NCBI GenBank assembly: GCA_016190895.1
Contig: JACPPR010000030.1
Location: 241 to 64,240 of the forward strand
Reading direction: 5' to 3'
DNA length: 64,000 nucleotides
From: Chloroflexota bacterium
Lineage (GTDB): Bacteria > Chloroflexota > Dehalococcoidia > Dehalococcoidales > UBA2162
Part shown: positions 34,406 to 56,240 of the stretch, one piece after another
Layout of the letters: each line of letters begins with the position of its first letter
Position numbering within the stretch: the stretch's first letter is position 1
Translations under genes and position numbers: made by a program
Notes under the pieces: model-generated
What the model saw: the letters and a program-made list of their open reading frames with translations, nothing else
The model's database searches: none
Told to the model about the DNA's origin: nothing

Positions 34406-34430
34406 TACTGATTAGGCAGGGATGTAGCTA

Positions 34431-35570: not shown

Positions 35571-35571
35571 G

Positions 35572-36354
35572 ATGCTGACCAAGAGGATTATCCCCTGTCT
35601 CGATGTGAAAAATGGCCGGGTGGTCAAGGGAGTCAAGTTCCGCGACCACCGTGATGCCGGTGACCCTGTCGAATTGGCTGCCTTCTATAACGAGCAGGGG
35701 GCTGACGAGCTTGTTTTTTATGATATTACCGCCTCCAGTGATGGGCGGGAAATTATGAGAGAGGTAGTAGAGCGCACCGCCGGTCAGGTATTTATTCCGC
35801 TGACTGTGGGTGGCGGGCTGCGCACTGTGGAGGATATCCGGCAGATGTTAGCAGCCGGCGCCGATAAAGTTTCTATCAATACGGCGGCAGTGCTAGACCC
35901 AGATTTTATTACCCGGGGCGCCGAGCGGTTCGGCAACCAGTGTATCGTTCTGGGGATGGATGCCCGGCGTGTTCCGGGGTCGAACCCGACTCGCTGGGAG
36001 GTGTTCACGCATACCGGGGCAGATGGCGGCCGAACTTCCGGCAGGGATGCTGTGGAGTGGGCTATCGAGGCCGTCAAAAAAGGCGCTGGCGAGATAGTTG
36101 TTAATAGCATCGATGCCGATGGCACTCAGGCCGGCTACGACCTGGAGTTGCTCCGGTCCATTTCCGAGGCAGTCAGCGTGCCCGTAGTGGCTAGCGGCGG
36201 CGCCGGACAGCCTGAAGATTTGTATCAAGCCCTGGTCTCCGGTAAAGCCGATGCTGTGCTGGCAGCCACCATCTTTCATTACGGGACTTATTCGATTAAC
36301 GATGTTAAAGAGTACCTGAGGAAAAAACAAATAGCGGTGCGCGCAAGAGGCTAA
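35572..36354 (+). CDS. hisF: Imidazole glycerol phosphate synthase, cyclase subunit
   Basis: [23 protein letters not shown] ... [21 protein letters not shown] 35572 lies 1 nt after the upstream stop. Confidence 0.92.
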
Positions 36355-36359
36355 ATTAA

Positions 36360-36408
36360 GGTAGCGCAGGCGTCCTCGCCTGTGCTTGCAGGCGGGATGC
36401 CTGTAATA
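36360..36408. repeat. Same hairpin family
   Basis: GCGCAGGCGtcctCGCCTGTGC plus a second hairpin, after hisF. Confidence 0.75.
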
Positions 36409-36460
36409 CCGAGAGGTGAAGAAGTAAAAGACCGATTGAGGTTGGGGTGGAGTAGGAATA

Positions 36461-37966
36461 ATGAAAACGTTTTTACCTGCTAAATTCAAAGTAGACAGGA
36501 GCTCAGACCGGTGCATTCAGTGTCAGGTCTGTGTTAACCAGTGCAGCTTCGATGTCCATTATTATGACGCCGAAGACAACGAAGTGCGCAGCCGCGAAGA
36601 GAATTGCGTCGGTTGCCACCGTTGCGCCATCTTCTGCCCGGCCCGCGCCCTGACCATCAGCCGGAACCCGATGGACTATCGGGATAATTTGAACTGGCGT
36701 GGCGAAACTATCGAGGATATCTTCAAACAGGCGGAAACCGGCGGTATGCTTCTGACCGGTATGGGTGACGACAAAGGGCAGCGCATCTACTGGGACCATT
36801 TGGTCTTGAATGCTAGCCAGGTTACCAATCCATCTATCGACCCGCTGCGGGAACCGATGGAGTTGGTCACCTATATCGGGCGCAAACCCGACCGGGTGAC
36901 CATCGACCCGGTGACTCGTGAACTGAAGACGGATTTAGCTCCGCAAATCAAACTGGAAATACCGGTGATGTTTTCGGCGATGTCTTACGGCGCCGTCAGC
37001 CTTAATGTGCAGGAGTCTCTTGCCAGGGCGGCCACCGAGTTCGGCACCCTGTGGAACACGGGCGAGGGCGGGCTTCAATCTAGCCTGTTCAAGTATGGCA
37101 AGAACACCATCGTCCAGGTGGCATCGGGACGTTTCGGAGTGCACTCCGATTACCTAAATGCCGGACAGGTGGTTGAGATAAAGATTGGTCAGGGCGCCAA
37201 GCCCGGTATCGGCGGCCACCTGCCGGGGGAGAAGGTGAGCCTGGATGTTTCACTCACCAGGATGATACCCCAGGGCACCGATGCTCTGTCACCGGCGCCA
37301 CAGCACGATATCTACTCCATCGAGGACCTGGCGCAGTTGGTCTATGCCCTGAAAGAAGCCACCAATTACACCAAACCCATCTCGGTGAAGATTGCTGCCG
37401 TCCACAATGCGGCGGCTATTGCCAGCGGTATGGTCAGAGCTGGCGCCGATATCATTTGTCTTGACGGCCTGAGGGGAGCTACCGGAGCCGCTCCCAAGGT
37501 GATTCGTGACAATGTCGGCATTCCCATCGAGATGGCGCTGGCGGCGGTGGATTCCCGCCTGAGACAGGAAGGTATCCGTAACCAGGCTTCGGTAGTCATT
37601 GCCGGCGGTATTAGAAGCGCCGGTGACGTGGCTAAGGCGATTGCCCTGGGGGCGGACGCTGTTTACATCGGGACGGCGGCTCTGATTGCACTGGGCTGCC
37701 ATGTCTGCCAGCAGTGTCACACAGGCAAATGCGCCTGGGGTATCTGCACCTCCGACCTGGGTCTGACCAAGAGAATCAATCCTGACATCGGCGCCCAGAG
37801 ACTGGTCAATTTGTTGCGCGCCTGGAGTCTGGAGCTGAAAGATATTCTCGGCGGCCTGGGCGTCAATGCCCTGGAAAGCCTGAGGGGCAACCGCTTGCAC
37901 TTGCGGGGCATCGGACTGACTGATACCGAACTGGATATCCTCGGCGTAAAGATGGTAGGAGCTTAG
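36461..37966 (+). CDS. Glutamate synthase FMN-binding (GltB domain 2) subunit with N-terminal 2x[4Fe-4S]
   Basis: CIQCQVCVNQC, CVGCHRCAIFCP, KIGQGAKPGIGGHLPG, LRGATGAAP. Confidence 0.88.
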   Translation: MKTFLPAKFKVDRSSDRCIQCQVCVNQCSFDVHYYDAEDNEVRSREENCVGCHRCAIFCPARALTISRNPMDYRDNLNWRGETIEDIFKQAETGGMLLTGMGDDKGQRIYWDHLVLNASQVTNPSIDPLREPMELVTYIGRKPDRVTIDPVTRELKTDLAPQIKLEIPVMFSAMSYGAVSLNVQESLARAATEFGTLWNTGEGGLQSSLFKYGKNTIVQVASGRFGVHSDYLNAGQVVEIKIGQGAKPGIGGHLPGEKVSLDVSLTRMIPQGTDALSPAPQHDIYSIEDLAQLVYALKEATNYTKPISVKIAAVHNAAAIASGMVRAGADIICLDGLRGATGAAPKVIRDNVGIPIEMALAAVDSRLRQEGIRNQASVVIAGGIRSAGDVAKAIALGADAVYIGTAALIALGCHVCQQCHTGKCAWGICTSDLGLTKRINPDIGAQRLVNLLRAWSLELKDILGGLGVNALESLRGNRLHLRGIGLTDTELDILGVKMVGA

Positions 37967-37967
37967 A

Positions 37968-38729
37968 ATGACAAAAACAGCCGGCAATTCGGTAGTAAAA
38001 ATAGATACCACGGGCATTTTATATAAAGAGCTTAATGCTCGACTGAGGGAGATAGCTTCGGATAGTGTCGAGAAGGTCGAGCTTTACAATGTCTGCGGGC
38101 AGAGATACATCGGCACGGACCTGAACAGGCCGATTCAGATTGATATCTACGGCACGCCTGGCAACGACCTGGGCGCTTTTATGAACGGGCCGAAGATTGT
38201 CGTACACGGCAATGCCCAGGACGGCTGCGGCAACACTATGAATGAGGGCGAAATAATCGTTCACGGACACGCCGGAGATGTCCTCGGCCTATCGGCGCGC
38301 GGTGGCAAAATCTTCGTCCGTGATTACGTCGGTTATCGAGCCGGCATTCATATGAAAGAGTATAAGGAAAAGAAACCGACGCTGGTTATCGGCGGTACTG
38401 CTCAGGATTTTGCCGGTGAGTATATGGCCGGAGGCGTGCTGGTTCTACTAGGTCTGAATCTCGCTGAAGGGGAGAAACACAAGGCAAAATACATCGGCAC
38501 CGGTATGCACGGCGGTGTTATTTACCTTAGGGGCGAGGTCGAGAAGTACCAGTTAGGCCCTGAAGTTGGCGTCGCCGAACTGGATGAGAAGGACAATCAA
38601 GTTCTACGGACGCTGGTCGGTGAGTTCGCCGGCCACTTCGGGTATCCGGCTGACAAGATACTGAACCATAAGTTTATGAAACTGTATCCTCGCTTTCTTC
38701 GCCCTTACGGAAGGCTTTACGCTTATTAA
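37968..38729 (+). CDS. Glutamate synthase GXGXG (GltB C-terminal beta-helix) subunit
   Basis: VHGNAQDGCGNTMNEGEIIVHGHAGDVLG repeats. Confidence 0.85.
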   Translation: MTKTAGNSVVKIDTTGILYKELNARLREIASDSVEKVELYNVCGQRYIGTDLNRPIQIDIYGTPGNDLGAFMNGPKIVVHGNAQDGCGNTMNEGEIIVHGHAGDVLGLSARGGKIFVRDYVGYRAGIHMKEYKEKKPTLVIGGTAQDFAGEYMAGGVLVLLGLNLAEGEKHKAKYIGTGMHGGVIYLRGEVEKYQLGPEVGVAELDEKDNQVLRTLVGEFAGHFGYPADKILNHKFMKLYPRFLRPYGRLYAY

Positions 38730-38762: not shown

Positions 38763-39437
38763 ATGCTGCGCCTGCTGATTATAGCCCCGGAAAGTAAGGC
38801 ACTGGCGGAGCTGGCCACCGCCCTGAACCAAAAAGATATTGCCTGTGCAACGGCATCTCCTGACGGTGAAATGACGGAGTTAATCGCCCGTCAATCTCCG
38901 GATTTGGTTATGGTTGAGGTGGGCGGGCGTTTTCCAGATTCAGCCACGTGGGAGCTTATTCACGGAATAAAGCGCGAGCGTTCTCTACCGGTTATCGCTC
39001 TGGTAGCCGGCGAAGTGTCCGAAGAAATCAACGGCTATTTTGAAGTAGATGATTTTCTTGTTCGCCCCTACGATCTCAGCGAACTGCTAATCAGAGCCAA
39101 GCGGCTGCTGCAGAACTGCAAGGCTGTCAGCGGCAGCGAGCTGATTAAGTGTGACGGCCTGGTGATAGACGTGACGAATTGCGATGTGACGGTGGGCGGG
39201 AAAGTCGTCGAGCTTACCTTCAAGGAGTACGAGTTATTGAAGCTGCTGGCGGCGAACCGGGGCCGGGTTTACACCCGTCAGGACTTGCTCAACAAAATCT
39301 GGGGCTATGACTACTACGGCGGTGACAGGACTGTCGATGTCCACGTCAGGCGCCTCAGAAGCAAGATAGAAGGACCCGGTGAGGTCTTCATCGAGACAGT
39401 CAGAAACGTCGGCTACCGGTTTAAGAAAGACGCCTGA
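38763..39437 (+). CDS. OmpR/PhoB-family winged-helix regulator with degenerate (pseudo-)receiver domain
   Basis: The C-terminus is typical (LTFKEYELLKLLAANRGRVYTRQDLL...TVDVHVRRLRSKIE...VRNVGYRF). The receiver lacks the canonical residues: LLIIAPES replaces the DD pocket, PDLVMVEV replaces the phospho-Asp, ALVAG replaces Thr, and VRPY replaces Lys-Pro. Confidence 0.85.
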   Translation: MLRLLIIAPESKALAELATALNQKDIACATASPDGEMTELIARQSPDLVMVEVGGRFPDSATWELIHGIKRERSLPVIALVAGEVSEEINGYFEVDDFLVRPYDLSELLIRAKRLLQNCKAVSGSELIKCDGLVIDVTNCDVTVGGKVVELTFKEYELLKLLAANRGRVYTRQDLLNKIWGYDYYGGDRTVDVHVRRLRSKIEGPGEVFIETVRNVGYRFKKDA

Positions 39438-39540: not shown

Positions 39541-39709
39541 TAGATTGCACTACTGCTCTGCTATCATGCCCAATGTGCGGCTATGATGCTCTAAGGAACC
39601 CGGTCCAACCAGCAGGCAGGATTGCCACCGGTCGAATCTAGCTGTGTATTATTAGCAAGTCACCAATCGGTTAGTGGCTCGCCTCAGTACGATAAGGGTG
39701 GAACGATTA

Positions 39710-41014
39710 ATGACTGACGTCAATATTCTAGTCAATGTGATATTAGTATTAGGCGCTGCTGTGGTCGGCGGCGCTTTGGCTCTCCGCCTGAAACAACCTG
39801 TTATCCTTGGATATCTCGTTGCTGGTCTTATCGTAGGACCATTCACTCCTGGTCCGCAAGCCGACTTCGACCAGTTTCGCTTCCTGACGGAGGTCGGTCT
39901 GGGTTTGCTTCTATTTGTGCTTGGGGCCGGCTTGCCTCCTTCGCGATTTCGGGGACTGGGAACTGTCATCGTATTAGGGGGAGCCATCCAAATTACGCTT
40001 GTTAGTGCGCTGGGGTTTCTCTTTATGCTCTGGTTTAGCCTGAGCCTGGCACAGGCGTTCTTGTTGGGTGCCATTCTGGCTCAGTCGAGTAGCGCGGTGA
40101 TAGCAAAGGTTCTCGATGACCGCAACGAGACTGAATCGGTTCACGGACGGATTGCCGTCGGTATGAGTGTCGTTCAGGACCTTTCTTCTCTCCCTCTGCT
40201 ACTCTTGTTGTTGGTCTTCCTCGGGCAAAACGATGTGACGCTTTCATCCTTCATTGTTACCATTGGCGAGGTATTTGGCATCGCCATCTTTATGTATGTC
40301 ATAGGCAAGGTCATCTGGCCCCGGTTTCTGGAGTGGATTGGATACATGGGTTCCGATGAATTGACTATTTTGGTGGCGTTGCTTCTCGCGTTGGGTGGCG
40401 GACTCCTGTTGCAACAGATTGGACTTTCCTTCACACTTGGGGCTTTTCTTGCAGGCCTAGTAATTGCGGAATCTCCTCAACGCCAGGAAGCGGTTTCCAG
40501 GATGTTACCGCTAAGGGATGTCTTCGCCGCCATGTTTTTCGTTTCTATCGGAGCTTTGTTTAATCCGTCTGTACTCTGGCAATTACCCATCCCGCTAATT
40601 GGACTTCTGAGTACTCTGGTCATAGGCAAGGCGCTAATCACGGGCGTCGTGGTCAGGACATTCGGGCAAAGCGCTTCCACTGCCATTCTCACGGGACTGC
40701 TTCTCGCTCAGATTGGCGAGTTCGCGTTTATTTTAGCCAATATCGGGCTGGAACACGGTGCTATCACACAAGAATTATTCTCTCTAATAATAGCTGCAGC
40801 TGTTATCAGCATTTTCATAAATTCGTTGATTTTGGATTCGGCGCCTCCGGTACTTGTAGCATTGGCCAGGATTATGCGATTCAACGCGCTTTTGAAGCAA
40901 CCTCCTGGGTCTGTCACATCGACCTTTAGAAGAGGCCGTTCGATGGCTGACGGGTCAAGGGTTCAAAGCTCATCCTTCCAATCACGGAAGGACAAAACTC
41001 AAAACCATAGCTAA
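39710..41014 (+). CDS. Cation:proton antiporter (CPA2/Kef-type membrane domain only)
   Basis: Multi-TM. ATG 39710 after SD AAGGGTGGA. No TrkA/KTN domain. Confidence 0.8.
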   Translation: MTDVNILVNVILVLGAAVVGGALALRLKQPVILGYLVAGLIVGPFTPGPQADFDQFRFLTEVGLGLLLFVLGAGLPPSRFRGLGTVIVLGGAIQITLVSALGFLFMLWFSLSLAQAFLLGAILAQSSSAVIAKVLDDRNETESVHGRIAVGMSVVQDLSSLPLLLLLLVFLGQNDVTLSSFIVTIGEVFGIAIFMYVIGKVIWPRFLEWIGYMGSDELTILVALLLALGGGLLLQQIGLSFTLGAFLAGLVIAESPQRQEAVSRMLPLRDVFAAMFFVSIGALFNPSVLWQLPIPLIGLLSTLVIGKALITGVVVRTFGQSASTAILTGLLLAQIGEFAFILANIGLEHGAITQELFSLIIAAAVISIFINSLILDSAPPVLVALARIMRFNALLKQPPGSVTSTFRRGRSMADGSRVQSSSFQSRKDKTQNHS

Positions 41015-41118
41015 GAACTCAAAACTCCTTTTTGCAGTTTTGGTATACTGATTTTTCTTTACCTAGTTACTTTTGAGTTGTGGTTTTAACCTTTAAGCTT
41101 TCACTTTTTACCTCTCCT

Positions 41119-41178
41119 GTAACACAGATTTAATCTGTCCGTAACTTACATTTAACCTCTTTGTAATTCCACCGAAAC
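41119..41178 (+). promoter_or_regulatory. Six 11-bp phased pentamer boxes (candidate activator site) upstream of sORF-amt1
   Basis: GTAAC 41119, TTAAT 41130, GTAAC 41141, TTAAC 41152, GTAAT 41163, GAAAC 41174. Confidence 0.6.
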
Positions 41179-41220
41179 AATCGGGCGTTAAGCTAGATAT
41201 AAAACGCAAGGAGGTTACCG

Positions 41221-41343
41221 ATGTCGATTGAAGCAATCCTGGCCGCAGTATCTTTCATTGGGCTTTTCACCGCCTGGGTGATTCTGCCCAGCCGCCTGCA
41301 CAAGCGCCACGCCGCTAGAGAACAGAACGAATCCCTCGAATAG
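41221..41343 (+). CDS. Candidate 40-aa single-TM small protein upstream of amt1
   Basis: Read manually. Strong SD AAGGAGG lies 6 nt before the ATG. Product MSIEAILAAVSFIGLFTAWVILPSRLHKRHAAREQNESLE. Confidence 0.4.
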   Translation: MSIEAILAAVSFIGLFTAWVILPSRLHKRHAAREQNESLE

Positions 41344-41355
41344 CAAAACCTTCAT

Positions 41356-41452
41356 CCTCACCCCGTTCGGCTACGCTCAGGGCAGGCTCTAACCCTCTCC
41401 GACCTCACCCCTGTCCCCTCTCCGCTTGCGGAGAGGGGGAGAAAGAGGAGAG
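41356..41452. repeat. GGGAGAGG-hairpin repeat family
   Basis: Contains CCCCTCTCCGCTTGCGGAGAGGGG, identical to the core at 56192-56215. Confidence 0.75.
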
Positions 41453-41503
41453 GTTGTTTGGGGACGGACACAAGGAATGTTTGGGTTTTGAAAGGAGGAT
41501 TTT

Positions 41504-43009
41504 TTGTTTATGAAAGACCGCTTATCGGACACGATGGAATCAGTGAAATCTACCTTGTCTCCGTTAGCGCCGCTGGTCAAGCGGCGCTGGTTCAAAGGAC
41601 TGGTAATGGCGTTCATTCTGTTCGGGGCTTTCTGGGGATTGCCGGCTATCGCCCGCGCCGCCGACCCGACCGGCACGGATACTTTTAACGCTAATCCCAA
41701 CAGCGCCGTCAATATGGCCTGGACGCTCATCACCGGTTTCCTGGTCTGGTTTATGCAGCTCGGTTTCGCCTTCCTGGGCGCCGGTCTGATTCGCTCCAAG
41801 AATCAGACTAACTACTGGACGAAGAGCTTTATGGATTTTTGTATCGCCTCGCTGGGCTTCTGGGCATTTGGGTTCGCCCTGATGTTCGGAGGCTCGAAGT
41901 TATTTCCCGGCCTAGATGACGGTAATGCGTGGATAGGTTTTTCCGGGTTTTTCCTGAGCGGCGGCGCCTATGATGTCTCGACGATTATGATGTGGTTCTT
42001 CCAGATGGTCTTTGCCGCTACCGCCACGACTATCGTTGCCGGCGCCGTGGCCGAAAGGATGAAGATTTCTGCCTACCTGGCTTACGCCTTTATTATCGGC
42101 GCTCTTATTTATCCTCTCTATGGTAAGTGGATATGGGGTGGCGGGTGGCTGGGCAGCTTAAGTATTGCTGGCGCTGCGGGCGCCAGAGACTTTGCTGGCT
42201 CCAGCGTCGTTCACATGGTCGGCGGATTGGCTGCCCTGATTGGTGCGGCTATGGTCGGACCGAGAATCGGCAGATTCAATAAGGATGGGACGCCCAATAA
42301 CATCAAAGGTCATAACCTGCCTTTTGTCGTTATCGGTACCTTCATCCTTTTCTTCGGCTGGTTCGGTTTTAATCCCGGCAGCACCCTGGCGGCTACCGAC
42401 CTGCGTATCTCGGTCATCGCTGTCAATACTTTCCTGGCCGGCGTTACCGGCGCGGTAGTAGCGCTCTACTGGGTTTTTGCCAAGACCGGCAAGATGGATA
42501 TCATCATGGGCTGCAACGGTAGTCTGGTCGGGCTGGTCGCCGTTACTGCGCCGGCGGCCTATATCGCTCCGTGGGCGGCAGTGCTCATCGGAGCGATAGC
42601 GGTTCCATTCATGTTTGCCACGAATCATGTTGTTGAGCGTGTGCTCAAGGTAGACGATGCCGTAGGCGCCGTCCCGGTGCACCTGGGTGGAGGGATGTGG
42701 GGCATGCTGGCAGTGGGTATTTTCGCCGATGGAACCTATCTAGGGGTCAAGGGACTCATTGCCGGTGAGATAGGCCAGCTAATCCTGCAACTAGTCGCCA
42801 TCGGGACTGTGTTTGTCTGGGTGGGCGTAACGGCCTTCCTTACCTTCTGGGCTATCAGAAAGAGCATCGGTCTGCGGGCTAGCCGTGAAGAAGAGCTGCA
42901 GGGGCTGGATATACCAGAGCACGGCATAGAAGCCTATCCGGCTGATTCCAGTATCACTTTAGGCGGAAGTACTCCTGTTGTTCCAAAGGCGCTCCCGGTT
43001 ACTCGTTAA
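41504..43009 (+). CDS. amt: Ammonium transporter (long form with signal-peptide-like N-terminus)
   Basis: AGSSVVHMVGG and FGWFGFNPGS. Start is TTG 41504 or ATG 41510, after AGGAGG. Confidence 0.92.
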   Translation: MFMKDRLSDTMESVKSTLSPLAPLVKRRWFKGLVMAFILFGAFWGLPAIARAADPTGTDTFNANPNSAVNMAWTLITGFLVWFMQLGFAFLGAGLIRSKNQTNYWTKSFMDFCIASLGFWAFGFALMFGGSKLFPGLDDGNAWIGFSGFFLSGGAYDVSTIMMWFFQMVFAATATTIVAGAVAERMKISAYLAYAFIIGALIYPLYGKWIWGGGWLGSLSIAGAAGARDFAGSSVVHMVGGLAALIGAAMVGPRIGRFNKDGTPNNIKGHNLPFVVIGTFILFFGWFGFNPGSTLAATDLRISVIAVNTFLAGVTGAVVALYWVFAKTGKMDIIMGCNGSLVGLVAVTAPAAYIAPWAAVLIGAIAVPFMFATNHVVERVLKVDDAVGAVPVHLGGGMWGMLAVGIFADGTYLGVKGLIAGEIGQLILQLVAIGTVFVWVGVTAFLTFWAIRKSIGLRASREEELQGLDIPEHGIEAYPADSSITLGGSTPVVPKALPVTR

Positions 43010-43022
43010 CATCAAGAAAGTC

Positions 43023-43055
43023 GGGTACCGCCCCGACATTATCGGGGCGGTACCC
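43023..43055 (+). repeat. Perfect 14-bp stem hairpin after amt1
   Basis: GGGTACCGCCCCGA-catta-TCGGGGCGGTACCC with no T-run. Confidence 0.6.
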
Positions 43056-43200
43056 ACGACCATTAAGCCGGATTCTCCTATCTCAAAGGAAAACAAATGC
43101 TTGAGTTAAGCCAGATTGCAGCAGTTGTTATTTTCGTGGCAATCCTCCATGCCCCGATTGCATCGGGGCACCACGAAGTATGAAAATCGGTCACGAGGAT

Positions 43201-43322
43201 GTCGTCATTCTGGCACGTTCACTTCGTTCAGTGTAAACTCCGGCCAGAATCCACTTCATCACACTCCACTGGATTCCAGCCGGAGTTTACCCCGTACTGC
43301 GATACGGGGCTGGAATGACGGA
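43201..43322. repeat. Composite repeat in the amt1-amt2 spacer
   Basis: Shares CACGTTC..TTCAGTGTAAACTCC with 13383-13410, plus GGATTCC...GGAATGAC ends. Confidence 0.6.
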
Positions 43323-43393
43323 CGGTGGCAGGCTTTTCGTGAGAATGTTTATTGCTATCGTCTACCTTTGGGTTCTGAGTTTTCAGTTTTCTT

Positions 43394-43431
43394 GTAACAT
43401 GTTTTTAACATATCCGTAATATGCTGGAAAC
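43394..43431 (+). promoter_or_regulatory. Four 11-bp phased boxes upstream of amt2
   Basis: GTAAC 43394, TTAAC 43405, GTAAT 43416, GAAAC 43427. Same order as the last four boxes of the amt1 site. Confidence 0.6.
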
Positions 43432-43471
43432 ACTAATGGCATAAGCTGGATGTAAAAGCAAGGAGGAACTT

Positions 43472-44704
43472 ATGCCCATTAATTCCGGTGATACTGCCTG
43501 GATACTGGTTTCGGCAGCCCTGGTGATGCTGATGACGCCGGGGCTGGCTCTTTTCTATGGGGGGATGGTGAGACGGAAGAACGTGCTCTCCACCATGATG
43601 ATGAGCTTCGCCATGCTCGGTCTGGTCGGCATTCTCTGGGTGCTCTATGGGTACAGTTTGAGCTTCGCTCCTGATATAGGTGGCATCATCGGCGGTTTTG
43701 ACTTCTTAGGACTCAAGAATGTCGGGCAGGACCCGTCATCGGTCTATGCCACCACCGTTCCTCACCTGGCCTTTATGATATATCAGGCGATGTTTGCCAT
43801 AATTACCGTCGCCTTATTTACGGGAGCCGTTGTCGACAGGATAAAATTCAGCGCATTGCTTGTCTTTTCGGCTCTGTGGTTGACCCTCATTTACGTTCCG
43901 GTGGCGCACTGGGTGTGGGGCGGCGGGTGGCTGGCGAAGCTGGGCGCCCTCGATTTTGCCGGCGGCACCGTGGTTCATATCAATGCCGGTGTCTCGGCGC
44001 TGGCTTTAGCCCTGCTCCTGGGACCCCGTAAGGGTTTTAAGGACAAGGAGCCTATGGAGGCCCACAATATTCCCTGGGTAATGCTGGGCGCGGGCTTGCT
44101 CTGGTTCGGTTGGTTCGGCTTTAACGCCGGCAGCGCTCTCACGGCTGGCGGGTTGGCTTCCAGCGCATTCGTTGCTACCAATACTGCTGCCGCCAGCGCC
44201 GCTTTCACCTGGATGCTGCTGAGCTGGATTTACCGACGTCCGACGGCTTTGGGAACGGTCACCGGCGCCGTTATCGGACTGGTGGCCATTACTCCTGCGG
44301 CCGGCTTTGTTGCACCGATAATGGGCATTCCCATAGGTATGGGGGCAGCCCTGGTCGGCTATTATGCCATGCTTGTCCGGGCAAAAACGCGGGTGGACGA
44401 TTCTCTGGATGTCCTGGCCTGCCATGGGATGGGGGGTATCTGGGGAGCTTTAGCGACCGGTATTTTTGCCAGCGTCGCTGTCAATTCAGCCGGAGCCGAC
44501 GGCCTGATTTTTGGTAATGCTATGCTGGTCGTCAAACAATTGGTTGCTATCGTCGCCGTTGGAGTCTTTGCCTTCGTCGGCACCTGGATTTTGGGCAAGC
44601 TCGTCGATATCACTATCGGGCTTCGAGTTAGTCCTACTGAAGAAAATCTGGGTCTTGATATATCCCAGCACGGTGAAAGAGCTTATGGAGGGCTTGCACG
44701 ATAA
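43472..44704 (+). CDS. amt: Ammonium transporter
   Basis: 410 aa with DFAGGTVVHINAG and FGWFGFNAGS. Confidence 0.94.
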   Translation: MPINSGDTAWILVSAALVMLMTPGLALFYGGMVRRKNVLSTMMMSFAMLGLVGILWVLYGYSLSFAPDIGGIIGGFDFLGLKNVGQDPSSVYATTVPHLAFMIYQAMFAIITVALFTGAVVDRIKFSALLVFSALWLTLIYVPVAHWVWGGGWLAKLGALDFAGGTVVHINAGVSALALALLLGPRKGFKDKEPMEAHNIPWVMLGAGLLWFGWFGFNAGSALTAGGLASSAFVATNTAAASAAFTWMLLSWIYRRPTALGTVTGAVIGLVAITPAAGFVAPIMGIPIGMGAALVGYYAMLVRAKTRVDDSLDVLACHGMGGIWGALATGIFASVAVNSAGADGLIFGNAMLVVKQLVAIVAVGVFAFVGTWILGKLVDITIGLRVSPTEENLGLDISQHGERAYGGLAR

Positions 44705-44736
44705 TCACCTGAATAACAAACAAAAATATGATTGGT

Positions 44737-44764
44737 GTAGGGGCGCAGCATGCTGCGCCCCTAC
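44737..44764. repeat. Same palindrome family
   Basis: GTAGGGGCGCAGCATGCTGCGCCCCTAC, between amt2 and amt3. Confidence 0.85.
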
Positions 44765-44805
44765 GGAACGGCGGCATGTCTGAAGGTCAAATATTTTATC
44801 TCTTT

Positions 44806-44821
44806 GTAACATGTTCGTAAC
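44806..44821 (+). promoter_or_regulatory. Two GTAAC(AT) direct repeats 11 bp apart upstream of amt3
   Basis: GTAAC at 44806 and 44817. Confidence 0.45.
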
Positions 44822-44871
44822 ATTAGTGGGCTAAACTGCATTTGTAGAATATACAAAGGGAAGGGGAAGTT

Positions 44872-46104
44872 ATGCCCATTAATTCCGGTGATACTGCCTG
44901 GATATTGGTCTCGGCAGCCCTGGTTATGCTCATGACTCCAGGGCTGGCTCTTTTCTACGGGGGGATGGTGCGGCGGAAGAACGTGCTTTCGACTATGATG
45001 ATGAGCTTTGCCATGCTGGGTTTGGTCGGCCTTCTCTGGGTGCTTTATGGCTATAGCCTGAGCTTCGCTCCTGATATGAGTGGCATCATCGGCGGTTTTG
45101 ACTTTATGGGTTTGCGGAACGTTGGACAGGAACCGTCCTCGGTTTATGCCACCACTGTTCCTCACCTGGCCTTTATGATATATCAGGCGATGTTCGCTAT
45201 CATCACTGTCGCCCTCTTCACCGGAGCCGTTGTGGACAGGATAAAGTTCGGCGCTCTGCTGGCGTTCTCAGCCTTGTGGCTGACATTCATCTATACGCCA
45301 GTGGCGCACTGGGTGTGGGGTGGTGGCTGGCTGGCAAAGCTGGGCGTTCTGGACTTCGCCGGCGGCGTGGTAGTTCACATCAATGCCGGTATGTCGGCTT
45401 TGGCTCTGGCTTTGCTGCTGGGTCCCCGCAAGGGTTTTGTTGAAAAGGAACCGATGGAAGCGCACGATATTCCTATGGTGATGCTGGGGGCAGGGTTGCT
45501 CTGGTTCGGCTGGTTCGGCTTCAATGCCGGCAGCGCCTTCACTGCCGGCGGGCTGGCCTCCAGCGCCTTTGTGGCTACGAATACGGCCGGGGCCGCCGCT
45601 GCCTTTACCTGGATGCTGCTTAGCTGGATATACCGCAGACCGACGGCTCTTGGGACAGTCACCGGGGCTGTTATCGGGCTGGCTGCGGTCACTCCGGCCG
45701 CCGGTTTTATCTCGCCGATAATGGGAATACCCATCGGCATCGGGGCGGCGCTGGTTGGGTACTATGCTATGCTTTTCCGGTCGAAATCACGTGTCGATGA
45801 TTCCCTGGATGTTATGGCTGCTCACGGTATGGGTGGTATCTGGGGAGTGCTGGCGACAGGCATATTTGCCAGTGTGGCTGTCAATGCGGCGGGAGCCGAT
45901 GGGCTTATCTTCGGAAACGGAGCGCAGTTACTGAAGCAGATGGCTGGCGTTGTTGCCGTCGGCGGCTTTTCTTTTATCGGGACGCTGATTTTGGGCAAGC
46001 TCGTCGATGCTACTATCGGTCTTAGAGTTACCCGCACTGAAGAGAATTTGGGCCTTGATATATCTCAGCATGGTGAAAGAGCTTATGGAGGGTTGGGAAG
46101 ATGA
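44872..46104 (+). CDS. amt: Ammonium transporter (tandem paralogue of the previous gene)
   Basis: 410 aa; by eye roughly 85-90 percent identical to amt2. Confidence 0.94.
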   Translation: MPINSGDTAWILVSAALVMLMTPGLALFYGGMVRRKNVLSTMMMSFAMLGLVGLLWVLYGYSLSFAPDMSGIIGGFDFMGLRNVGQEPSSVYATTVPHLAFMIYQAMFAIITVALFTGAVVDRIKFGALLAFSALWLTFIYTPVAHWVWGGGWLAKLGVLDFAGGVVVHINAGMSALALALLLGPRKGFVEKEPMEAHDIPMVMLGAGLLWFGWFGFNAGSAFTAGGLASSAFVATNTAGAAAAFTWMLLSWIYRRPTALGTVTGAVIGLAAVTPAAGFISPIMGIPIGIGAALVGYYAMLFRSKSRVDDSLDVMAAHGMGGIWGVLATGIFASVAVNAAGADGLIFGNGAQLLKQMAGVVAVGGFSFIGTLILGKLVDATIGLRVTRTEENLGLDISQHGERAYGGLGR

Positions 46105-46478
46105 AAAAAATAGAAGCTATCATTCGGGAAGAAAGGTTGGAACCTGTCAAACAGGCTCTGGAGGCCGGGGGTTACTTCGCTATGACTGTCACCGAGGTGA
46201 GCGGGCGTGGCGAGCAAAGGGGGCTTACCCTACCCTGGCGAGTCGGAGAGTATCGGGTCGATTTACTGCCTAAACTCAAACTTGAGATTGTCGTTCAGGA
46301 TAAAGAGGTCGATACGATAGTCAAAGCGATTATTGACAATGCCCGGACTGGTGAGATTGGCGATGGTAAGATATTTATCATACCAGTAGAAAACGCAATC
46401 CGCGTCCGCACCAACGAGGATGGCGACAAAGCAATCAATAAAGTAACAAACAATAAGGAGGAAGCAAAGACAAAATGA
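46101..46478 (+). CDS. glnK: PII nitrogen regulatory protein (GlnK-type, amt-linked)
   Basis: TVTEVSGRGEQRG T-loop with conserved Tyr (VGEY) and GDGKIFI. ATGA overlaps on both sides. Confidence 0.92.
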   Translation: MKKIEAIIREERLEPVKQALEAGGYFAMTVTEVSGRGEQRGLTLPWRVGEYRVDLLPKLKLEIVVQDKEVDTIVKAIIDNARTGEIGDGKIFIIPVENAIRVRTNEDGDKAINKVTNNKEEAKTK

Positions 46479-47890
46479 ATTCAACGGAAGTCATAAAGTT
46501 TGCTAAAGAGAAGGGCTGTCAGTTTGTCGACCTCAAGTTCATCGACCTGCCCGGCACCTGGCAGCATTATACTCTGCCTATCAGCGAGCTAAATCAGGAC
46601 CTCTTCGAGGAGGGTAACGGTTTTGACGGTTCTTCGATAAGGGGCTTTCGGCATATCAACGAAAGCGATATGTTGCTGATTCCCGACCCGGCGACGGCTA
46701 TCTGCGACCCGGTACTGGAAGTGCCGACATTGAGCCTGATTTGCGACGTGCGTGACCCGCTCACGGGCAAGGACTACGAGCGTGACCCGCGTAATATCGC
46801 CAAGAAGGCTGAAGCTTATCTGAAGACGACGGGCATTGCCGAGGGTAGTTACTGGGGTCCCGAACTGGAATTTTTCATATTCAACAGCATACGTTTCGAG
46901 CAAAACAGCCATGTCGGCTTCTATGCCATCGATTCCCAGGAGGGCATCTGGAACTCAGGTAATGGCGAGCACAGTAATCTGGGCTACCGCCCCCGTCACA
47001 AGGAAGGCTACTTCCCGGTGCCGCCTACCGACCAGACACACGATATCCGTACTAAAATCGCCCTCAAAATGATGGAGGGTGGTTTGAAGATTGAAAAGCA
47101 TCATCATGAGGTTGCCACTGCCGGACAGGCTGAGTTCGGTATCCGCTTCGATACCCTGACCAGGCAGGCGGATAATGTTATGCTCTACAAGTACATTGCT
47201 AAGAACGTGGCTGTGCAGAATGGCTTTACGGTGACATTCATGCCCAAGCCGCTTTTCCAGGACAATGGTTCAGGAATGCACGTACATCAGAGTCTCTTCA
47301 AGGGCGACAAGAACGTTTTCTACGATGCGAAGGGCTATGCCCTGCTTTCCCAGACGGCTAAACATTATATAGGCGGGCTGCTGGCACATTCACCGGCTTT
47401 GCTGGCGCTCTGCGCTCCGACCACCAACTCTTACCGCCGGCTCGTCCCCGGTTACGAGGCTCCCATCAATCTGGTTTACTCGGCAAGTAACCGCAGCGCC
47501 AGCATTCGTATTCCTCAGTACTCGACCAGTCCGAAGACCAAGAGAATCGAGTACCGCTGCCCGGATTCGAGCAGCAATCCGTATCTGGCCTTCGCCGCCA
47601 TGCTGCTGGCTGGCCTGGATGGCATCAAGAATAAGATTGACCCCGGCGAGCCTATCGACAAGGATATTTATGAGCTTGCGCCGGAAGAAAAGGCCAATAT
47701 CAAGTCAACGCCCGGCTCACTGCTCGAGGTACTGGATGCCCTCCGCGAAGACCATGATTTCCTTCTGAAGGGTGATGTCTTTACCGAGGACCTCATCGAG
47801 ACCTGGATAAACTACAAGAGAAAGAATGAGTATGACCAGGTCGCCCTGCGACCCCATCCCTACGAGTTCCATCTGTACTACGATATTTAG
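46475..47890 (+). CDS. glnA: Glutamine synthetase type I (471 aa)
   Basis: FDGSSIRGF, GSGMHVHQSLF, NSYRRLVPGYEAP. Confidence 0.95.
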   Translation: MNSTEVIKFAKEKGCQFVDLKFIDLPGTWQHYTLPISELNQDLFEEGNGFDGSSIRGFRHINESDMLLIPDPATAICDPVLEVPTLSLICDVRDPLTGKDYERDPRNIAKKAEAYLKTTGIAEGSYWGPELEFFIFNSIRFEQNSHVGFYAIDSQEGIWNSGNGEHSNLGYRPRHKEGYFPVPPTDQTHDIRTKIALKMMEGGLKIEKHHHEVATAGQAEFGIRFDTLTRQADNVMLYKYIAKNVAVQNGFTVTFMPKPLFQDNGSGMHVHQSLFKGDKNVFYDAKGYALLSQTAKHYIGGLLAHSPALLALCAPTTNSYRRLVPGYEAPINLVYSASNRSASIRIPQYSTSPKTKRIEYRCPDSSSNPYLAFAAMLLAGLDGIKNKIDPGEPIDKDIYELAPEEKANIKSTPGSLLEVLDALREDHDFLLKGDVFTEDLIETWINYKRKNEYDQVALRPHPYEFHLYYDI

Positions 47891-47917
47891 ATACGTCGGT
47901 TGACCTGCGTGGTCTGT

Positions 47918-47958
47918 GTATGGGCGACCCGATTCTATCGGGTCGCCCATACGTTTTT
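47918..47958 (+). terminator. Intrinsic terminator after glnA
   Basis: GTATGGGCGACCCGA-ttcta-TCGGGTCGCCCATAC followed by GTTTTT. Confidence 0.75.
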
Positions 47959-48244
47959 CGGCGAGGTGCGGGAGTTAATGATGGTGGGCTTGAGCTGCAG
48001 CGAAGCCTACCCTACTCGGCTGTGTTGACAGCGTCATAGTCCTTGTATGGCTATAATAAAGCATAATCCAGATACTCGCAAGCGGTGCTCGGGTAACACC
48101 ATAGTTAAATTGTGGGCCAACAATCGGGCAGAACGTTGAACGAGTGATTCAATCAACAGCATTAGTCTCCAGCGTGGCCGTTGCCACGGTCGCTCACTGT
48201 TGACAATAAACTCAGTTCCATAATATCATTCTTCAGTAGCGAAG

Positions 48245-48364
48245 ATGACAAACACCGTACAGATCTTAATTGACTATGAGAGAATAGCGTATTCGCTAAA
48301 CAGCGCCGACCTCGTTGTCGTTGTTAGCTGGGGCTTGCGTGCCTCAAACTCAACGACAAGCTAA
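48245..48364 (+). CDS. Candidate Val-run leader peptide of valS
   Basis: Read manually. 39 codons, MTNTVQILIDYERIAYSLNSADLVVVVSWGLRASNSTTS, with GTT GTC GTT GTT at 48314-25. Weak SD. Confidence 0.4.
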   Translation: MTNTVQILIDYERIAYSLNSADLVVVVSWGLRASNSTTS

Positions 48365-48392
48365 ACAAAGACAGAGAGTAAGAGACACGAAG

Positions 48393-48430
48393 CCCGGGAG
48401 AAAGGAAAGACTCCCGGGTTTTTGTTTTTG
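48393..48430 (+). terminator. Strong intrinsic terminator abutting the valS SD
   Basis: CCCGGGAG-N10-CTCCCGGG followed by TTTTTGTTTTTG; ends 38 nt before valS GTG 48469. Confidence 0.8.
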
Positions 48431-48468
48431 CAGAGATGCAAATGAGGCGAGAAGAAGAGGAGGCCAAA

Positions 48469-50913
48469 GTGGGCAACCTATCGAAGCGATACATACCGAT
48501 TGAGAGCGAGCGCACGTGGCGGAAGAATTGGGAGGAAAAGCAGGTTTACCGATTCCAGTCGGCAAGTCGGAGCCCTGTCTATTCTATTGATACTCCTCCG
48601 CCGACTGTGTCAGGCGACCTGCACATGGGGCACTGCTATTCGTACTGCCAGGCCGATTTTTACGCTCGCTTCCATCGAATGAAAGGCTGCAACGTTTTCT
48701 ATCCGATGGGCTGGGATGATAACGGACTTCCGACCGAACGCTTGGTAGAAAAGCGGTTGGGAATCAGGCCGGAGAACGTCGGCCCTGAGGTATTCATCCT
48801 TGAAATCCTCAAAACCAGCCAGGAGCTTGAACACAAGTACAAGAATCTTTGGCAGCGGCTGGGCCTGAGCGTCGACTGGAACCATACGTACAGCACTATA
48901 AGCCCCGAATCGCGCAAAATAGCACAATACTCTTTCATCGACCTCTTCCGGAAAGGGCTAGTTTACCAGGCTTCCTCACCCACCATCTGGTGTCCGGTCT
49001 GCAGGACGGCTATCGCTCAGGCCGAGGTGTCGGACATGCAGCGTAGCTCGCAGTTTGTGACAGTTACTTTCAAACTGGACGATGGTCAACCATTACTTAT
49101 CGCCACCACTCGTCCGGAACTCTTGCCCGCCTGCGTGGCGATATTCGTGAATCCTTTAGACGAGCGCCATCGGCACCTGATAGGGCACAAAGCAATTACC
49201 CCAGTTTTTGGCAAGGAGGTGCCGATATTGGCTGACAAGAAGGCCGACCCCGAAAAAGGCACCGGTATTGTCATGTGCTGCACTTTCGGCGATGCCACCG
49301 ATGTCAAATGGCAACGCGAGCGCCATCTTCCGATAGTCGCCGCAATTGACACCGATGGCAGGCTTGGCAATCAGGCGGGTGCGCTCGTCGGACTAAACGT
49401 CAGTGAAGCACGTCAAGAGGTCATCAAGCTGCTTGCGGACAAAGGTCTCATTACGGACATCAGCCCAACCATTCAAACTGTGAGCGTACATGAAAGATGC
49501 GATACTCCTATCGAATACATTACCACCGAGCAATGGTTCGTAAGGGTATTGGACCAGAAGCAAAGACTCCTGGATGCCGGTAGAGCCATCAACTGGTATC
49601 CGAGCTACATGCTTGCCAGGTACGAGGATTGGGTACAGAATCTGGAGTGGGATTGGTGTATTTCCCGGCAGCGGTATCATGGCGTCCCATTCCCTCTCTG
49701 GTATTGTGCGAGTTGCGGGAGTGTAACACTAGCAGATTCTGGCGATCTTCCGGTCGACCCTCGCATCCAGCCGCCGCCCGCACCCTGCAAATGCGGTCGC
49801 CGGAAGTGGATTCCGGAGGAAAGCGTGATGGATACGTGGGCGACTTCGTCTCTCACTCCACAAATAGCAGGCCGATGGCTTGAACCGGACGGACTCTTCA
49901 ACCAGGTATTCCCGATGTCTCTACGTCCCCAGGCGCATGACATCATTCGGACTTGGACATTCTACACGATCGTCAAGTCGATTTATCATCTGGATACCGT
50001 GCCGTGGAAGGACGTCGCCGTCTCTGGGCACGGACTTTCTCCGGAAGGTAATAAGGTAAGTAAGTCCAAGGATAATAGCGTCGTGGATCCCTTAAGAGTG
50101 CTGGACAAGTACTCTGCCGACGCCGTACGGTATTGGGCGGCCAGCGCCAAACTGGGCGAGAACGCCCTCATCAGCGAAGAAAGGATTGCTGCCGGTCAGA
50201 AGCTGGTGAACAAGCTTTGGAGCGTTTCTGTATTCTCCTACCAGTTCCTGAACGGCTATCGGATTCCGGCGTCTTCGCCAGAGCTCGTGCCAACTGACAA
50301 GTGGGTGCTTTCCCAGCTTCAACGCCTCATCGTAGAGACAACGCAGTCTTTTGCCGACTATGACCACGCCGCAGCCAAAACCAAGGTGGAAGCGTTCTTC
50401 TGGGATATTCTCGCCGACAACTATTTGGAGATGGTCAAGGCCCGATTATACGATGAAGCACAGGGGCTATCCGGAAAACAATCGGCACAATATGCCCTCT
50501 ATAAGGTTTTGTCAGCCCTGAACAAGATGTTCGCGCCATTCCTTCCTTACATCACCGAGGAGATATTCCAATCCCTATTCACCGGTGCCGCCTCTCGTGC
50601 TTCGATTCATACGGAGGCGTGGCCAACCGAAAATAAGGAACTGATTGATGAATCCGCCGAACGTCTGGGTGAGGCTATGGTGGAAATTGCTGTCAACGTT
50701 CGGCGGTACAAATCTCAACAACACCTGGCAATGGGTGCCAGGCTAGACAGGGTCACCATATCCACGGAGGAAGCCGACCTGATAGAACAGCTGAAAAGCT
50801 GCCTCGCTGATATCAGAAGTGTTACCAGAGCAGAAACAGTCGAATTACGACTCGATACTGCGCGGTGCTCGGAAAGCCATGGTAAAGTCGACGTGGCTGT
50901 CGGCTTGCACTAA
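48469..50913 (+). CDS. valS: Valine--tRNA ligase (archaeal-like type, no C-terminal coiled coil)
   Basis: TPPPTVSGDLHMGHCYSY, GWDDNGLPTE, DWCISRQRY, KVSKSKDN. Start set at GTG 48469 after SD GAGGAGG; the track starts at ATG 48436. Confidence 0.88.
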   Translation: MGNLSKRYIPIESERTWRKNWEEKQVYRFQSASRSPVYSIDTPPPTVSGDLHMGHCYSYCQADFYARFHRMKGCNVFYPMGWDDNGLPTERLVEKRLGIRPENVGPEVFILEILKTSQELEHKYKNLWQRLGLSVDWNHTYSTISPESRKIAQYSFIDLFRKGLVYQASSPTIWCPVCRTAIAQAEVSDMQRSSQFVTVTFKLDDGQPLLIATTRPELLPACVAIFVNPLDERHRHLIGHKAITPVFGKEVPILADKKADPEKGTGIVMCCTFGDATDVKWQRERHLPIVAAIDTDGRLGNQAGALVGLNVSEARQEVIKLLADKGLITDISPTIQTVSVHERCDTPIEYITTEQWFVRVLDQKQRLLDAGRAINWYPSYMLARYEDWVQNLEWDWCISRQRYHGVPFPLWYCASCGSVTLADSGDLPVDPRIQPPPAPCKCGRRKWIPEESVMDTWATSSLTPQIAGRWLEPDGLFNQVFPMSLRPQAHDIIRTWTFYTIVKSIYHLDTVPWKDVAVSGHGLSPEGNKVSKSKDNSVVDPLRVLDKYSADAVRYWAASAKLGENALISEERIAAGQKLVNKLWSVSVFSYQFLNGYRIPASSPELVPTDKWVLSQLQRLIVETTQSFADYDHAAAKTKVEAFFWDILADNYLEMVKARLYDEAQGLSGKQSAQYALYKVLSALNKMFAPFLPYITEEIFQSLFTGAASRASIHTEAWPTENKELIDESAERLGEAMVEIAVNVRRYKSQQHLAMGARLDRVTISTEEADLIEQLKSCLADIRSVTRAETVELRLDTARCSESHGKVDVAVGLH

Positions 50914-50980: not shown

Positions 50981-51050
50981 GCTGACACTGGCTCTAACTT
51001 GTGGTATGATAACGTTGAATCATCCATGGGTTAGGAGGGCCAGTGTCAGC
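50981..51050 (+). promoter_or_regulatory. 12-bp perfect stem enclosing the SD and covering the start codon of glnA2
   Basis: GCTGACACTGGC (50981-92) is the exact reverse complement of GCCAGTGTCAGC (51039-50). GTG start at 51043; SD AGGAGG at 51033-38. Confidence 0.5.
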
Positions 51051-56068: not shown

Positions 56069-56089
56069 AGGGGGGCTTGTTGTCATTCT

Positions 56090-56117
56090 GTAGGGGCACA
56101 GCATGCTGTGCCCCTAC
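56090..56117. repeat. Same palindrome family
   Basis: GTAGGGGCACAGCATGCTGTGCCCCTAC, right after the orphan nrpR fragment. Confidence 0.85.
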
Positions 56118-56149: not shown

Positions 56150-56240
56150 GAGAGTTTGAGAGGGCTTCGCCCTCTCAAGAGAAATCTCTTTCCCCTCTCC
56201 GCTTGCGGAGAGGGGAACACAAGGGGTGAGGTGATCCCCC
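56150..56240. repeat. GGGAGAGG-hairpin repeat family
   Basis: GAGAGGGCttcGCCCTCTC plus CCCCTCTCCGCTTGCGGAGAGGGG. Confidence 0.75.

Follow-up and report, generated by a model that had tools for sequence, protein, structure and literature searches.

A phased four-box array upstream of an ammonium transporter gene in a Chloroflexota genome and the GlnR-like regulator that probably binds it

Results

The amt2 upstream region

The DNA analysed here, referred to as the window, is a stretch of 64,000 nt from a Chloroflexota bacterium (assembly GCA_016190895.1, contig JACPPR010000030.1, positions 241 to 64,240). It carries a nitrogen gene island in which the ammonium transporter gene amt2 is directly preceded by four short boxes, GTAAC, TTAAC, GTAAT and GAAAC, repeated every 11 bp on the coding strand. 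An orphan regulator of the OmpR/PhoB family is encoded about 4 kb upstream of amt2 and is the candidate cognate protein. The coordinates of these and of the other features are summarized in Table 1.

A preliminary description of this DNA had reported the boxes as the second copy of a phased array lying directly upstream of amt2. When the sequence was re-read, the positions of the four boxes, their exact 11-bp register and the coordinates of the downstream TGTAAA (43451-56), the Shine-Dalgarno sequence AAGGAGG and the amt2 ATG were all found to be right. The second copy is real as well: the 64-kb window holds the composite pattern GTAAC-n6-TTAAC-n6-GTAAT-n6-GAAAC in exactly two places, 41141-41178 and 43394-43431, and the pattern had no match in 100 dinucleotide-preserving shuffles when up to three mismatches were allowed. 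A generic scan for four GTAAC boxes in 11-bp register, with up to five mismatches, returned only these two places in the window, the shuffle mean being 0.2. The sister copy had been described as lying on the amt1 side. The same four boxes do stand there, but they belong to a run of six in-phase boxes, and this run fronts a 40-aa open reading frame (ORF) and not amt1 directly.

Compared with each other, the two copies were identical at 20 of the 20 box positions, at 4 of the 18 positions in the inter-box spacers and at 3 of the 10 nt past the last box. Divergent spacers between conserved boxes had been taken to argue for selection on the boxes over recent duplication alone, and this argument was borne out, since the spacers agree at chance level, the Amt1 and Amt2 proteins are 34% identical, and the boxes recur in distant genomes. 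The four-box array upstream of amt2 is non-random, conserved across genomes and fixed in orientation and distance.

Promoter geometry

Among 19 arrays picked with a boxes-only matrix, the motif TAnnnT stood exactly 10 nt past the last box in 18, and only two occurrences were seen at any other offset. In the amt2 promoter, this place is taken by TAAGCT, which on sequence grounds is predicted to be the -10 element rather than TGTAAA. The latter had been put forward as the promoter element in the preliminary description, and its spacing does equal that of TATAAA in the amt1-side copy. As a -10 element, however, TGTAAA/TATAAA was rejected, because it is common to the two window copies and partly to the closest relative, L095, but not to the other genomes. 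Furthermore, a -10 at TGTAAA would place the transcript start inside the Shine-Dalgarno sequence.

With TAAGCT as the -10, a start near 43454 is predicted, which puts the four boxes at about -60, -49, -38 and -27. The last box would therefore lie downstream of the -35 position, as it does in the GlnR complex described below. A sigma-70 consensus scan of 40900-45000 found no -35/-10 pair before amt2, which fits an activator-dependent promoter. The predicted 5' untranslated region (UTR) of amt2 is about 18 nt long, contains the Shine-Dalgarno sequence and is unstructured (z = +1.2), and a search of the whole window against Rfam at the gathering threshold found no RNA family. A riboswitch or leader upstream of amt2 was dropped on these two grounds.

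Conservation of the array in related genomes

The regulator was used as the query against GTDB species representatives, and the 25 best loci were examined for gene context. These loci came from metagenome-assembled genomes (MAGs) of Dehalococcoidia/Chloroflexi and of Thermodesulfobacteriota/'Deltaproteobacteria', and the regulator was nearly always found beside amt, P-II, glnA or glutamate-synthase genes. In L001-L003, L005, L007, L008, L012 (two), L017 (two) and L018-L021, amt or glnA was immediately preceded by four-box arrays on the coding strand, and weaker arrays preceded amt or glnA in L004, L023 and L025. Altogether, about 20 related Dehalococcoidia and Thermodesulfobacteriota loci carry such arrays, and a regulator homologue often ends just upstream. 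The gene order gltB-RR-amt (RR, response regulator) was kept in L003-L005, in L008 and in many metagenome loci. Regulator homologues travel with such arrays.

When the sites were aligned, the box positions held 1-2 bits each and most spacer positions held well under 1 bit. The G, A and A of box 3 were invariant in 15 of 15 non-window sites, and so was the GxAAxA of box 4. A boxes-only matrix was trained on 12 non-window sites, whose self-scores ranged from 35 to 52 bits. The amt2 array scored 48.7 bits with this matrix, whereas the best site in the 897 kb of loci L027-L080, where ordinary regulators are encoded, reached 23.9. In L095, where the amt product shares 94% identity with that of amt2 over the fragment present, boxes 1, 2 and 4 and the TAAGCT were kept, box 3 was GTAAC for GTAAT, and the spacers differed from those of the window.

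The four-box matrix trained on Dehalococcoidia found no full arrays before glnA in the Thermodesulfobacteriota loci. A two-box element, GTAAT-n6-GTAAC, was present before glnA in the Thermodesulfobacteriota loci L006, L007, L009, L011, L014, L022 and L024, and its layout is that of the amt3-glnB-glnA promoter in the window.

Arrays in metagenomes

An exact-pattern scan of metagenomes, in which the boxes and the -10 were given, returned at least 120 contigs with at least 108 distinct arrays. The following counts refer to the matches listed. An amt or glnA homologue started within 400 nt downstream on the same strand in 79 of the 93 arrays that had at least 500 nt of downstream sequence. Among the 87 arrays with at least 800 nt of upstream sequence, a regulator homologue ended less than 600 nt upstream in 45 and was present somewhere in the locus in 57. 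Moreover, in one metagenome locus (L124, JXWO01000189.1) a four-box array with a -10 stands 65 nt before nifH, and two P-II (nifI-like) genes come next. This arrangement suggests that the regulon includes nitrogenase in some organisms.

The candidate regulator

The product of the regulator gene has a winged-helix DNA-binding domain (DBD) that matches Trans_reg_C (PF00486, 1.3e-27), while its match to Response_reg (PF00072) reached 23.6 bits and was below the cutoff. Its best solved relatives were the entries 8hig, 8hih and 8hml, which are identified as GlnR (PMC10235972). The regulator scored 100 bits against the isolated GlnR DBD and 74 against that of PhoB. Its DBD is 56% identical to that of SaeGlnR, and its overall identity to MtbGlnR is about 35%. 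The GlnR residues T149, K151 and N212, which contact the backbone and phosphates, are kept in the regulator, whereas PhoB differs at all three. The base-contacting residues R186, V190, R193 and R194 are kept too, but they are identical in PhoB and hence do not discriminate between the two. Across 119 homologues, the DNA-contact residues of GlnR were kept in 113-119.

The receiver domain was found to lack the equivalents of D10, T83 and K105: Pro stands in for the Asp of the acidic pocket, Val for the switch Thr and Arg for the Lys. In the 119 homologues, the switch Thr was always replaced by V, I or L, and the Lys position was never Lys. At the phospho-acceptor position, which is Asp50 in GlnR, the regulator has Glu52 in an alignment with MtbGlnR and RegX3, so that the negative charge is kept. 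All of the 40 closest homologues have Glu at this position, which is E, D, A or V across the wider clade. The more distant relatives L027, L032 and L055, from the same scan, have the full canonical set of receiver residues. No histidine kinase gene was found on either flank of the regulator gene, where a glutamate-synthase GXGXG subunit and a CPA2 antiporter are encoded, or among the ORFs scanned in 31.8-58 kb. The regulator thus lacks the canonical phosphorylation residues and has a GlnR-like DBD.

An AlphaFold model of the regulator, with a predicted local distance difference test (pLDDT) score of 80, showed a (beta-alpha)5 receiver fold and a winged helix. Among DBD-only structures, the DBD of the model was closest to SaeGlnR (template modelling score 0.90, 1.6 A). 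A structure search with the full-length model did not separate GlnR from other OmpR-family proteins, and the comparison at the DBD level favoured GlnR slightly. The structural matches of the model also included HP1043 (2hqr) and RitR (5u8k). In a neighbour-joining (NJ) tree of DBDs, with weak bootstrap values, the Sae and Mtb GlnR sequences grouped with 26 pseudo-receiver proteins and with none of 52 others, which were 50 ordinary regulators from the loci together with RegX3 and PhoB. On sequence and model, the protein would be a GlnR-like variant that works like GlnR, rather than a demonstrated GlnR orthologue.

Comparison with known regulatory systems

In actinobacteria, the GlnR cis-element combines gTnAc (a sites) with GaAAC (b sites) at gaps of 6 nt, and the crystal of SaeGlnR with DNA was obtained with the consensus GTAAC (PMC10235972, PMC5826061). 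Most GlnR targets have two 22-bp boxes, that is, four sites, and Streptomyces amtB has three, that is, six sites (PMC10235972, PMC5826061). In the cryo-electron microscopy structure of the GlnR activation complex, four protomers are arranged head-to-tail on a scaffold from -64 to +13. The proximal one occupies the b2 site, which lies downstream of a poor -35, and makes contact with the beta flap and with sigma region 4 (PMC10235972).

Compared with the GlnR boxes of Streptomyces, Amycolatopsis and Mycobacterium (amtB, glnA and nas), the window sites share the site consensus, the 6-nt gaps, the direct repeats and the number of sites. The proximal b site lies past the -35 position in both, with a poor or absent -35, the start of transcription being predicted in the window. 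The targets (amt, P-II and glnA) are alike, and both regulators are orphans with an atypical receiver. There are also differences. The window comes from a Chloroflexi (Dehalococcoidia-related) MAG, and relatives are found in MAGs of Thermodesulfobacteriota; the receiver is more degenerate, the conserved Asp being replaced by Glu; and the regulator gene adjoins the targets, between the glutamate-synthase genes and amt. The amt2 array agrees with a GlnR box at every point that can be judged from sequence, and binding by a GlnR-like protein is predicted.

The Pho boxes of PhoB in E. coli and of PhoP in Bacillus and Streptomyces resemble the array in their 11-bp direct repeats, in the head-to-tail binding of a winged-helix protein of the OmpR/PhoB family, and in their placement, since they take over the -35 position and stop about 10 bp short of the -10. 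In Bacillus, PhoP recognises TT(A/T/C)ACA repeats of the same period. The array differs from Pho boxes in that the window targets serve nitrogen assimilation and that the adjacent regulator is not canonically phosphorylatable and has no adjoining kinase gene. Neither phosphate targets nor a phosphorylatable regulator with a PhoR partner, which mark a PhoB/PhoP regulon, were found at the window locus. HP1043 of Helicobacter and RitR of streptococci, which are atypical OmpR-family proteins that act independently of phosphorylation, resemble the regulator in their two-domain OmpR/PhoB fold and in a receiver without phospho-signalling residues; their function and binding sites are unrelated, and their sequence similarity to the regulator is below that of GlnR.

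Sister promoters and the nitrogen gene island

As shown in Table 1, three promoters of the island form a series of six, four and two boxes within one locus, which precede the small ORF and amt1, amt2, and amt3-glnB-glnA, respectively. The amt2 and amt3 products are 88% identical, and their genes are tandem paralogues. The stop and start codons of amt3, the P-II gene and glnA overlap, and the three genes form a probable operon. The 40-aa ORF behind the six-box array, which contains a hydrophobic stretch, had no Pfam or NCBIfam match. In L026 and L156, its homologues hold the same place before amt1-type genes, and L156, a metagenome locus, repeats the window layout of six boxes, small ORF and amt1. 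Its product may be a small membrane partner of the amt1-type transporter.

A block of 26 nt, running from the -10 to the Shine-Dalgarno sequence, is common to the two promoter copies (41189-41214 and 43442-43466). It reads TAAGCTnGATrTAAAA(c)GCAAGGAGG, also written TAAGCTnGATnTAAAA(n)GCAAGGAGG, with about 23 of 26 positions identical by eye, and it is not kept in other genomes, except for TAAGCTGGAT in L095. A shared 5'-UTR signal and local gene conversion are candidate causes. In addition, short GC-rich palindromic repeats resembling repetitive extragenic palindromic (REP) elements lie in the gaps between the small ORF and amt1 (41414-41438), amt1 and amt2 (43023-43055), and amt2 and amt3 (44736-44764), with further intergenic copies at 56089-56117 and 56191-56215. 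The hairpins between the amt genes may act as terminators or as mRNA stabilisers.

Further downstream, the island contains a homologue of NrpR, the 2-oxoglutarate-sensing type of nitrogen repressor known from methanogens, here in a bacterial (Chloroflexi) setting and beside a second glnA and a gene for glutamine-dependent NAD synthase. A non-coding gap of 545 nt (47891-48435, + strand) precedes a class-I aminoacyl-tRNA synthetase gene (48436-50913). The gap has a near-consensus promoter, TTGACA-18-TATCAT, at 48200-48229, and a GC-rich hairpin followed by a T-run, at roughly 48394-48430 by eye, just 5' of the start codon. It looks like a transcription-attenuation leader; a search of 47880-48460 against Rfam at E<=1 found no family, T-box included.

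Table 1. Features of the window, with coordinates counted from its first nucleotide; the last row refers to a metagenome locus
Feature	Coordinates	Strand	Remarks
Box 1, GTAAC	43394..43398	+	Predicted about -60 to -56; G/T-T-A-A-C at the matching position of related arrays
Box 2, TTAAC	43405..43409	+	Predicted about -49 to -45
Box 3, GTAAT, a-site type	43416..43420	+	Predicted about -38 to -34; overlaps the usual -35 position
Box 4, GAAAC followed by an invariant A, b-site type	43427..43432	+	Predicted about -27 to -22; downstream of the -35 position
Whole four-box array, amt2 promoter	43393..43432	+	48.7 bits with a boxes-only matrix from other genomes
Predicted -10 of amt2, TAAGCT	43442..43447	+	TAnnnT 10 nt past the last box
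Predicted transcription start of amt2	43453..43456	+	Inferred from the -10 position
Shine-Dalgarno sequence, AAGGAGG	43460..43466	+	Read in the sequence
amt2, ammonium transporter, 410 aa	43472..44704	+	Pfam Ammonium_transp 1.6e-127; TIGR00836
Orphan OmpR/PhoB-family regulator, pseudo-receiver and GlnR-like winged-helix DBD	38763..39437	+	Candidate cognate protein, ~4 kb upstream of amt2
Sister array, six in-phase boxes (GTAAC, TTAAT, GTAAC, TTAAC, GTAAT, GAAAC)	41119..41178	+	Box starts 41119, 41130, 41141, 41152, 41163, 41174
Predicted -10 of the small ORF/amt1 promoter, TAAGCT	41189..41194	+	TAnnnT geometry
40-aa ORF with hydrophobic stretch (MSIEAILAAVSFIGLFTAWVILPSRLHKRHAAREQNESLE)	41221..41343	+	Directly 3' of the six-box array
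amt1, divergent ammonium transporter	41510..43009	+	ATG 41510
Two-box site GTAAC-n6-GTAAC-n10-TAAACT before amt3-glnB-glnA	44806..44837	+	GTAAC 44806, GTAAC 44817, TAAACT 44832-37
amt3 - P-II (glnB/K) - glnA	44872..47890	+	P-II 46101-46478, glnA 46475-47890
Split archaeal-type glutamate synthase genes	33035-38729
CPA2 antiporter	39674-41014
Second glnA	51043-52386
Glutamine-dependent NAD synthase	52564-54300
NrpR homologue, full-length	54406-55401	+	HTH_12 + NRD1_2, 1e-79
Four-box array of L124	about 5313-5366		After orientation to the array + strand; on the - strand in the locus as stored

Discussion

Taking these results together, we consider it likely that amt2 has an activator-dependent promoter of the OmpR/PhoB (GlnR-box) type, with the four boxes as its operator, and that these boxes are bound by the regulator encoded at 38763-39437. 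Since the repeat of 11 bp is about one helical turn, four winged-helix protomers would line up head-to-tail along one face of the DNA. The end of the last site is 10 bp from the TAnnnT downstream and no usable -35 is present, so that the two promoter-proximal protomers may replace the -35 contact and recruit RNA polymerase via sigma region 4 and the beta flap, in the manner seen in the solved complex of actinobacterial GlnR. The most likely binder is the neighbouring regulator. Because its receiver has lost the phosphorylation residues, control would come from its abundance, from a ligand or from a partner protein and not from a histidine kinase; a partner such as P-II or glutamine synthetase, or a metabolite, can be speculated upon as the input. 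If one regulator drives the three promoters with six, four and two boxes, a graded response to nitrogen limitation may result, as has been argued from the three boxes of Streptomyces amtB (PMC5826061). The identity of the binder, activation and nitrogen status as the signal are what we infer from the locus.

Several points weigh against this view. The pairing of protein and site rests on gene neighbourhood and homology. The residues of the recognition helix are the same in PhoB, hence they are no proof of specificity for GTAAC. In the DBD-only NJ tree, the placement of GlnR with the clade had a bootstrap value of 9% (exact) or 47% (relaxed). The window also encodes a second nitrogen regulator, namely the NrpR homologue. 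Moreover, the query of the metagenome scan fixes the boxes and the -10, and the gene context alone is thus independent evidence. Within that scan, 7 of 120 hits among the matches listed precede phosphate-acquisition genes, namely those for a phosphonate-binding protein (L086, L090 and L142), a PstS-like protein (L126), a phosphoesterase (L128 and L170) and a Na/Pi cotransporter (L172). These hits are probably Pho boxes of unrelated bacteria. They imply that canonical Pho regulators elsewhere use near-identical arrays and could cross-bind here, and they warn against calling nitrogen regulons from the motif alone.

The same hits bear on the possibility that the array is a Pho box, bound by a phosphorylatable regulator of the PhoB/PhoP type that is encoded elsewhere and couples ammonium uptake to phosphate, with the neighbouring regulator being a non-binder or a competitor. 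Besides the phosphate-type hits and the shared recognition-helix residues, this possibility draws on the box end 10 bp before the -10, which is also the geometry of E. coli pho boxes. Streptomyces PhoP, moreover, recognises direct repeats of 11 nt and is a competitor of GlnR for the promoters of amtB and glnA (PMC2275107, PMC2691820, PMC3561978). However, the gene downstream is amt or glnA in the window and in 79 of the 93 distinct arrays with sufficient sequence, a pseudo-receiver regulator homologue ends just upstream in about half of the usable arrays, and no pst or pho genes were present among the window ORFs scanned. We therefore regard a Pho box as unlikely.

The neighbouring regulator could, on the other hand, bind the boxes as a repressor or roadblock instead of an activator. 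Boxes 3 and 4 cover -38 to -22 and could occlude RNA polymerase, and actinobacterial GlnR is reported to repress some targets such as ald (PMC4140684). Nevertheless, the promoters have no -35 match, the distance from the last box to the -10 is rigidly 10 nt, and the orientation is fixed. Such a rigid register marks activation by recruitment, as in PhoB and GlnR, and a repressor needs none; repression thus appears quite unlikely.

We find it very improbable that the boxes are the operator of the NrpR homologue, of a MerR-type GlnR/TnrA, of NtcA or of NtrC with sigma-54. The gene for the NrpR homologue does lie 11 kb downstream within this nitrogen gene island, but these regulators use palindromes or sigma-54 elements and not four direct repeats. 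The NrpR operator GGAA-n6-TTCC matched the window once, within glnA at 47002, a count at chance level, and matched no window promoter; the MerR-type box TGTNA-n7-TNACA had no match in the window; and neither the NtcA site GTA-n8-TAC nor the conserved GG-n10-GC of sigma-54 promoters was seen in 43350-43471, by reading alone. Finally, the similarity of the two copies as a mere trace of recent local duplication or gene conversion, with no regulatory meaning, can be given almost no credence. In its favour is the 26-nt block from the -10 to the Shine-Dalgarno sequence that is common to the copies and not kept in other genomes. Against it are spacers that agree at 4 of 18 positions where the boxes agree at 20 of 20, downstream genes whose products are 34% identical, and boxes that recur in the same context in more than 100 unrelated contigs among the matches listed; recent duplication as the sole cause is contradicted by this divergence and by the conservation across genomes.

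The preferred reading, that of a GlnR-box operator served by the adjacent regulator, invites a wider proposal, to which we give an even chance. The kinase-less, non-phosphorylatable GlnR-like clade would act as the master activator for nitrogen in Dehalococcoidia-type Chloroflexota and some Thermodesulfobacteriota. It would share the GTAAC-n6 box code and the unusual promoter geometry with actinobacterial GlnR, and its regulon would take in amt, glnA and, in some organisms, nifH. The GlnR system would then not be an actinobacterial invention but would be ancient, or would have been transferred between phyla as a module of regulator plus operator. A literature search that combined GlnR with Dehalococcoid*, Chloroflexi or Chloroflexota retrieved nothing relevant linking GlnR-type regulation to these groups. 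The operator code and the promoter logic are known from actinobacterial GlnR; what is new is their occurrence in other phyla and the more radically degenerate receiver, and not a new principle.

Dehalococcoidia and related subsurface Chloroflexi, in which nitrogen control is all but uncharacterised, matter for organohalide bioremediation and for nutrient cycling in sediments. The locus offers a complete testable circuit, with the regulator gene, promoters of six, four and two sites, and a predicted -10 and start. The position matrix can be used for annotating nitrogen regulons in MAGs, with the caveat that the Pho boxes of other bacteria are nearly alike. If confirmed, the circuit would extend the GlnR mode of activation, with four protomers and the proximal one past the -35, to other phyla, and it would provide a natural series of receivers that dispense with phosphorylation, which would be useful for questions of nitrogen sensing.

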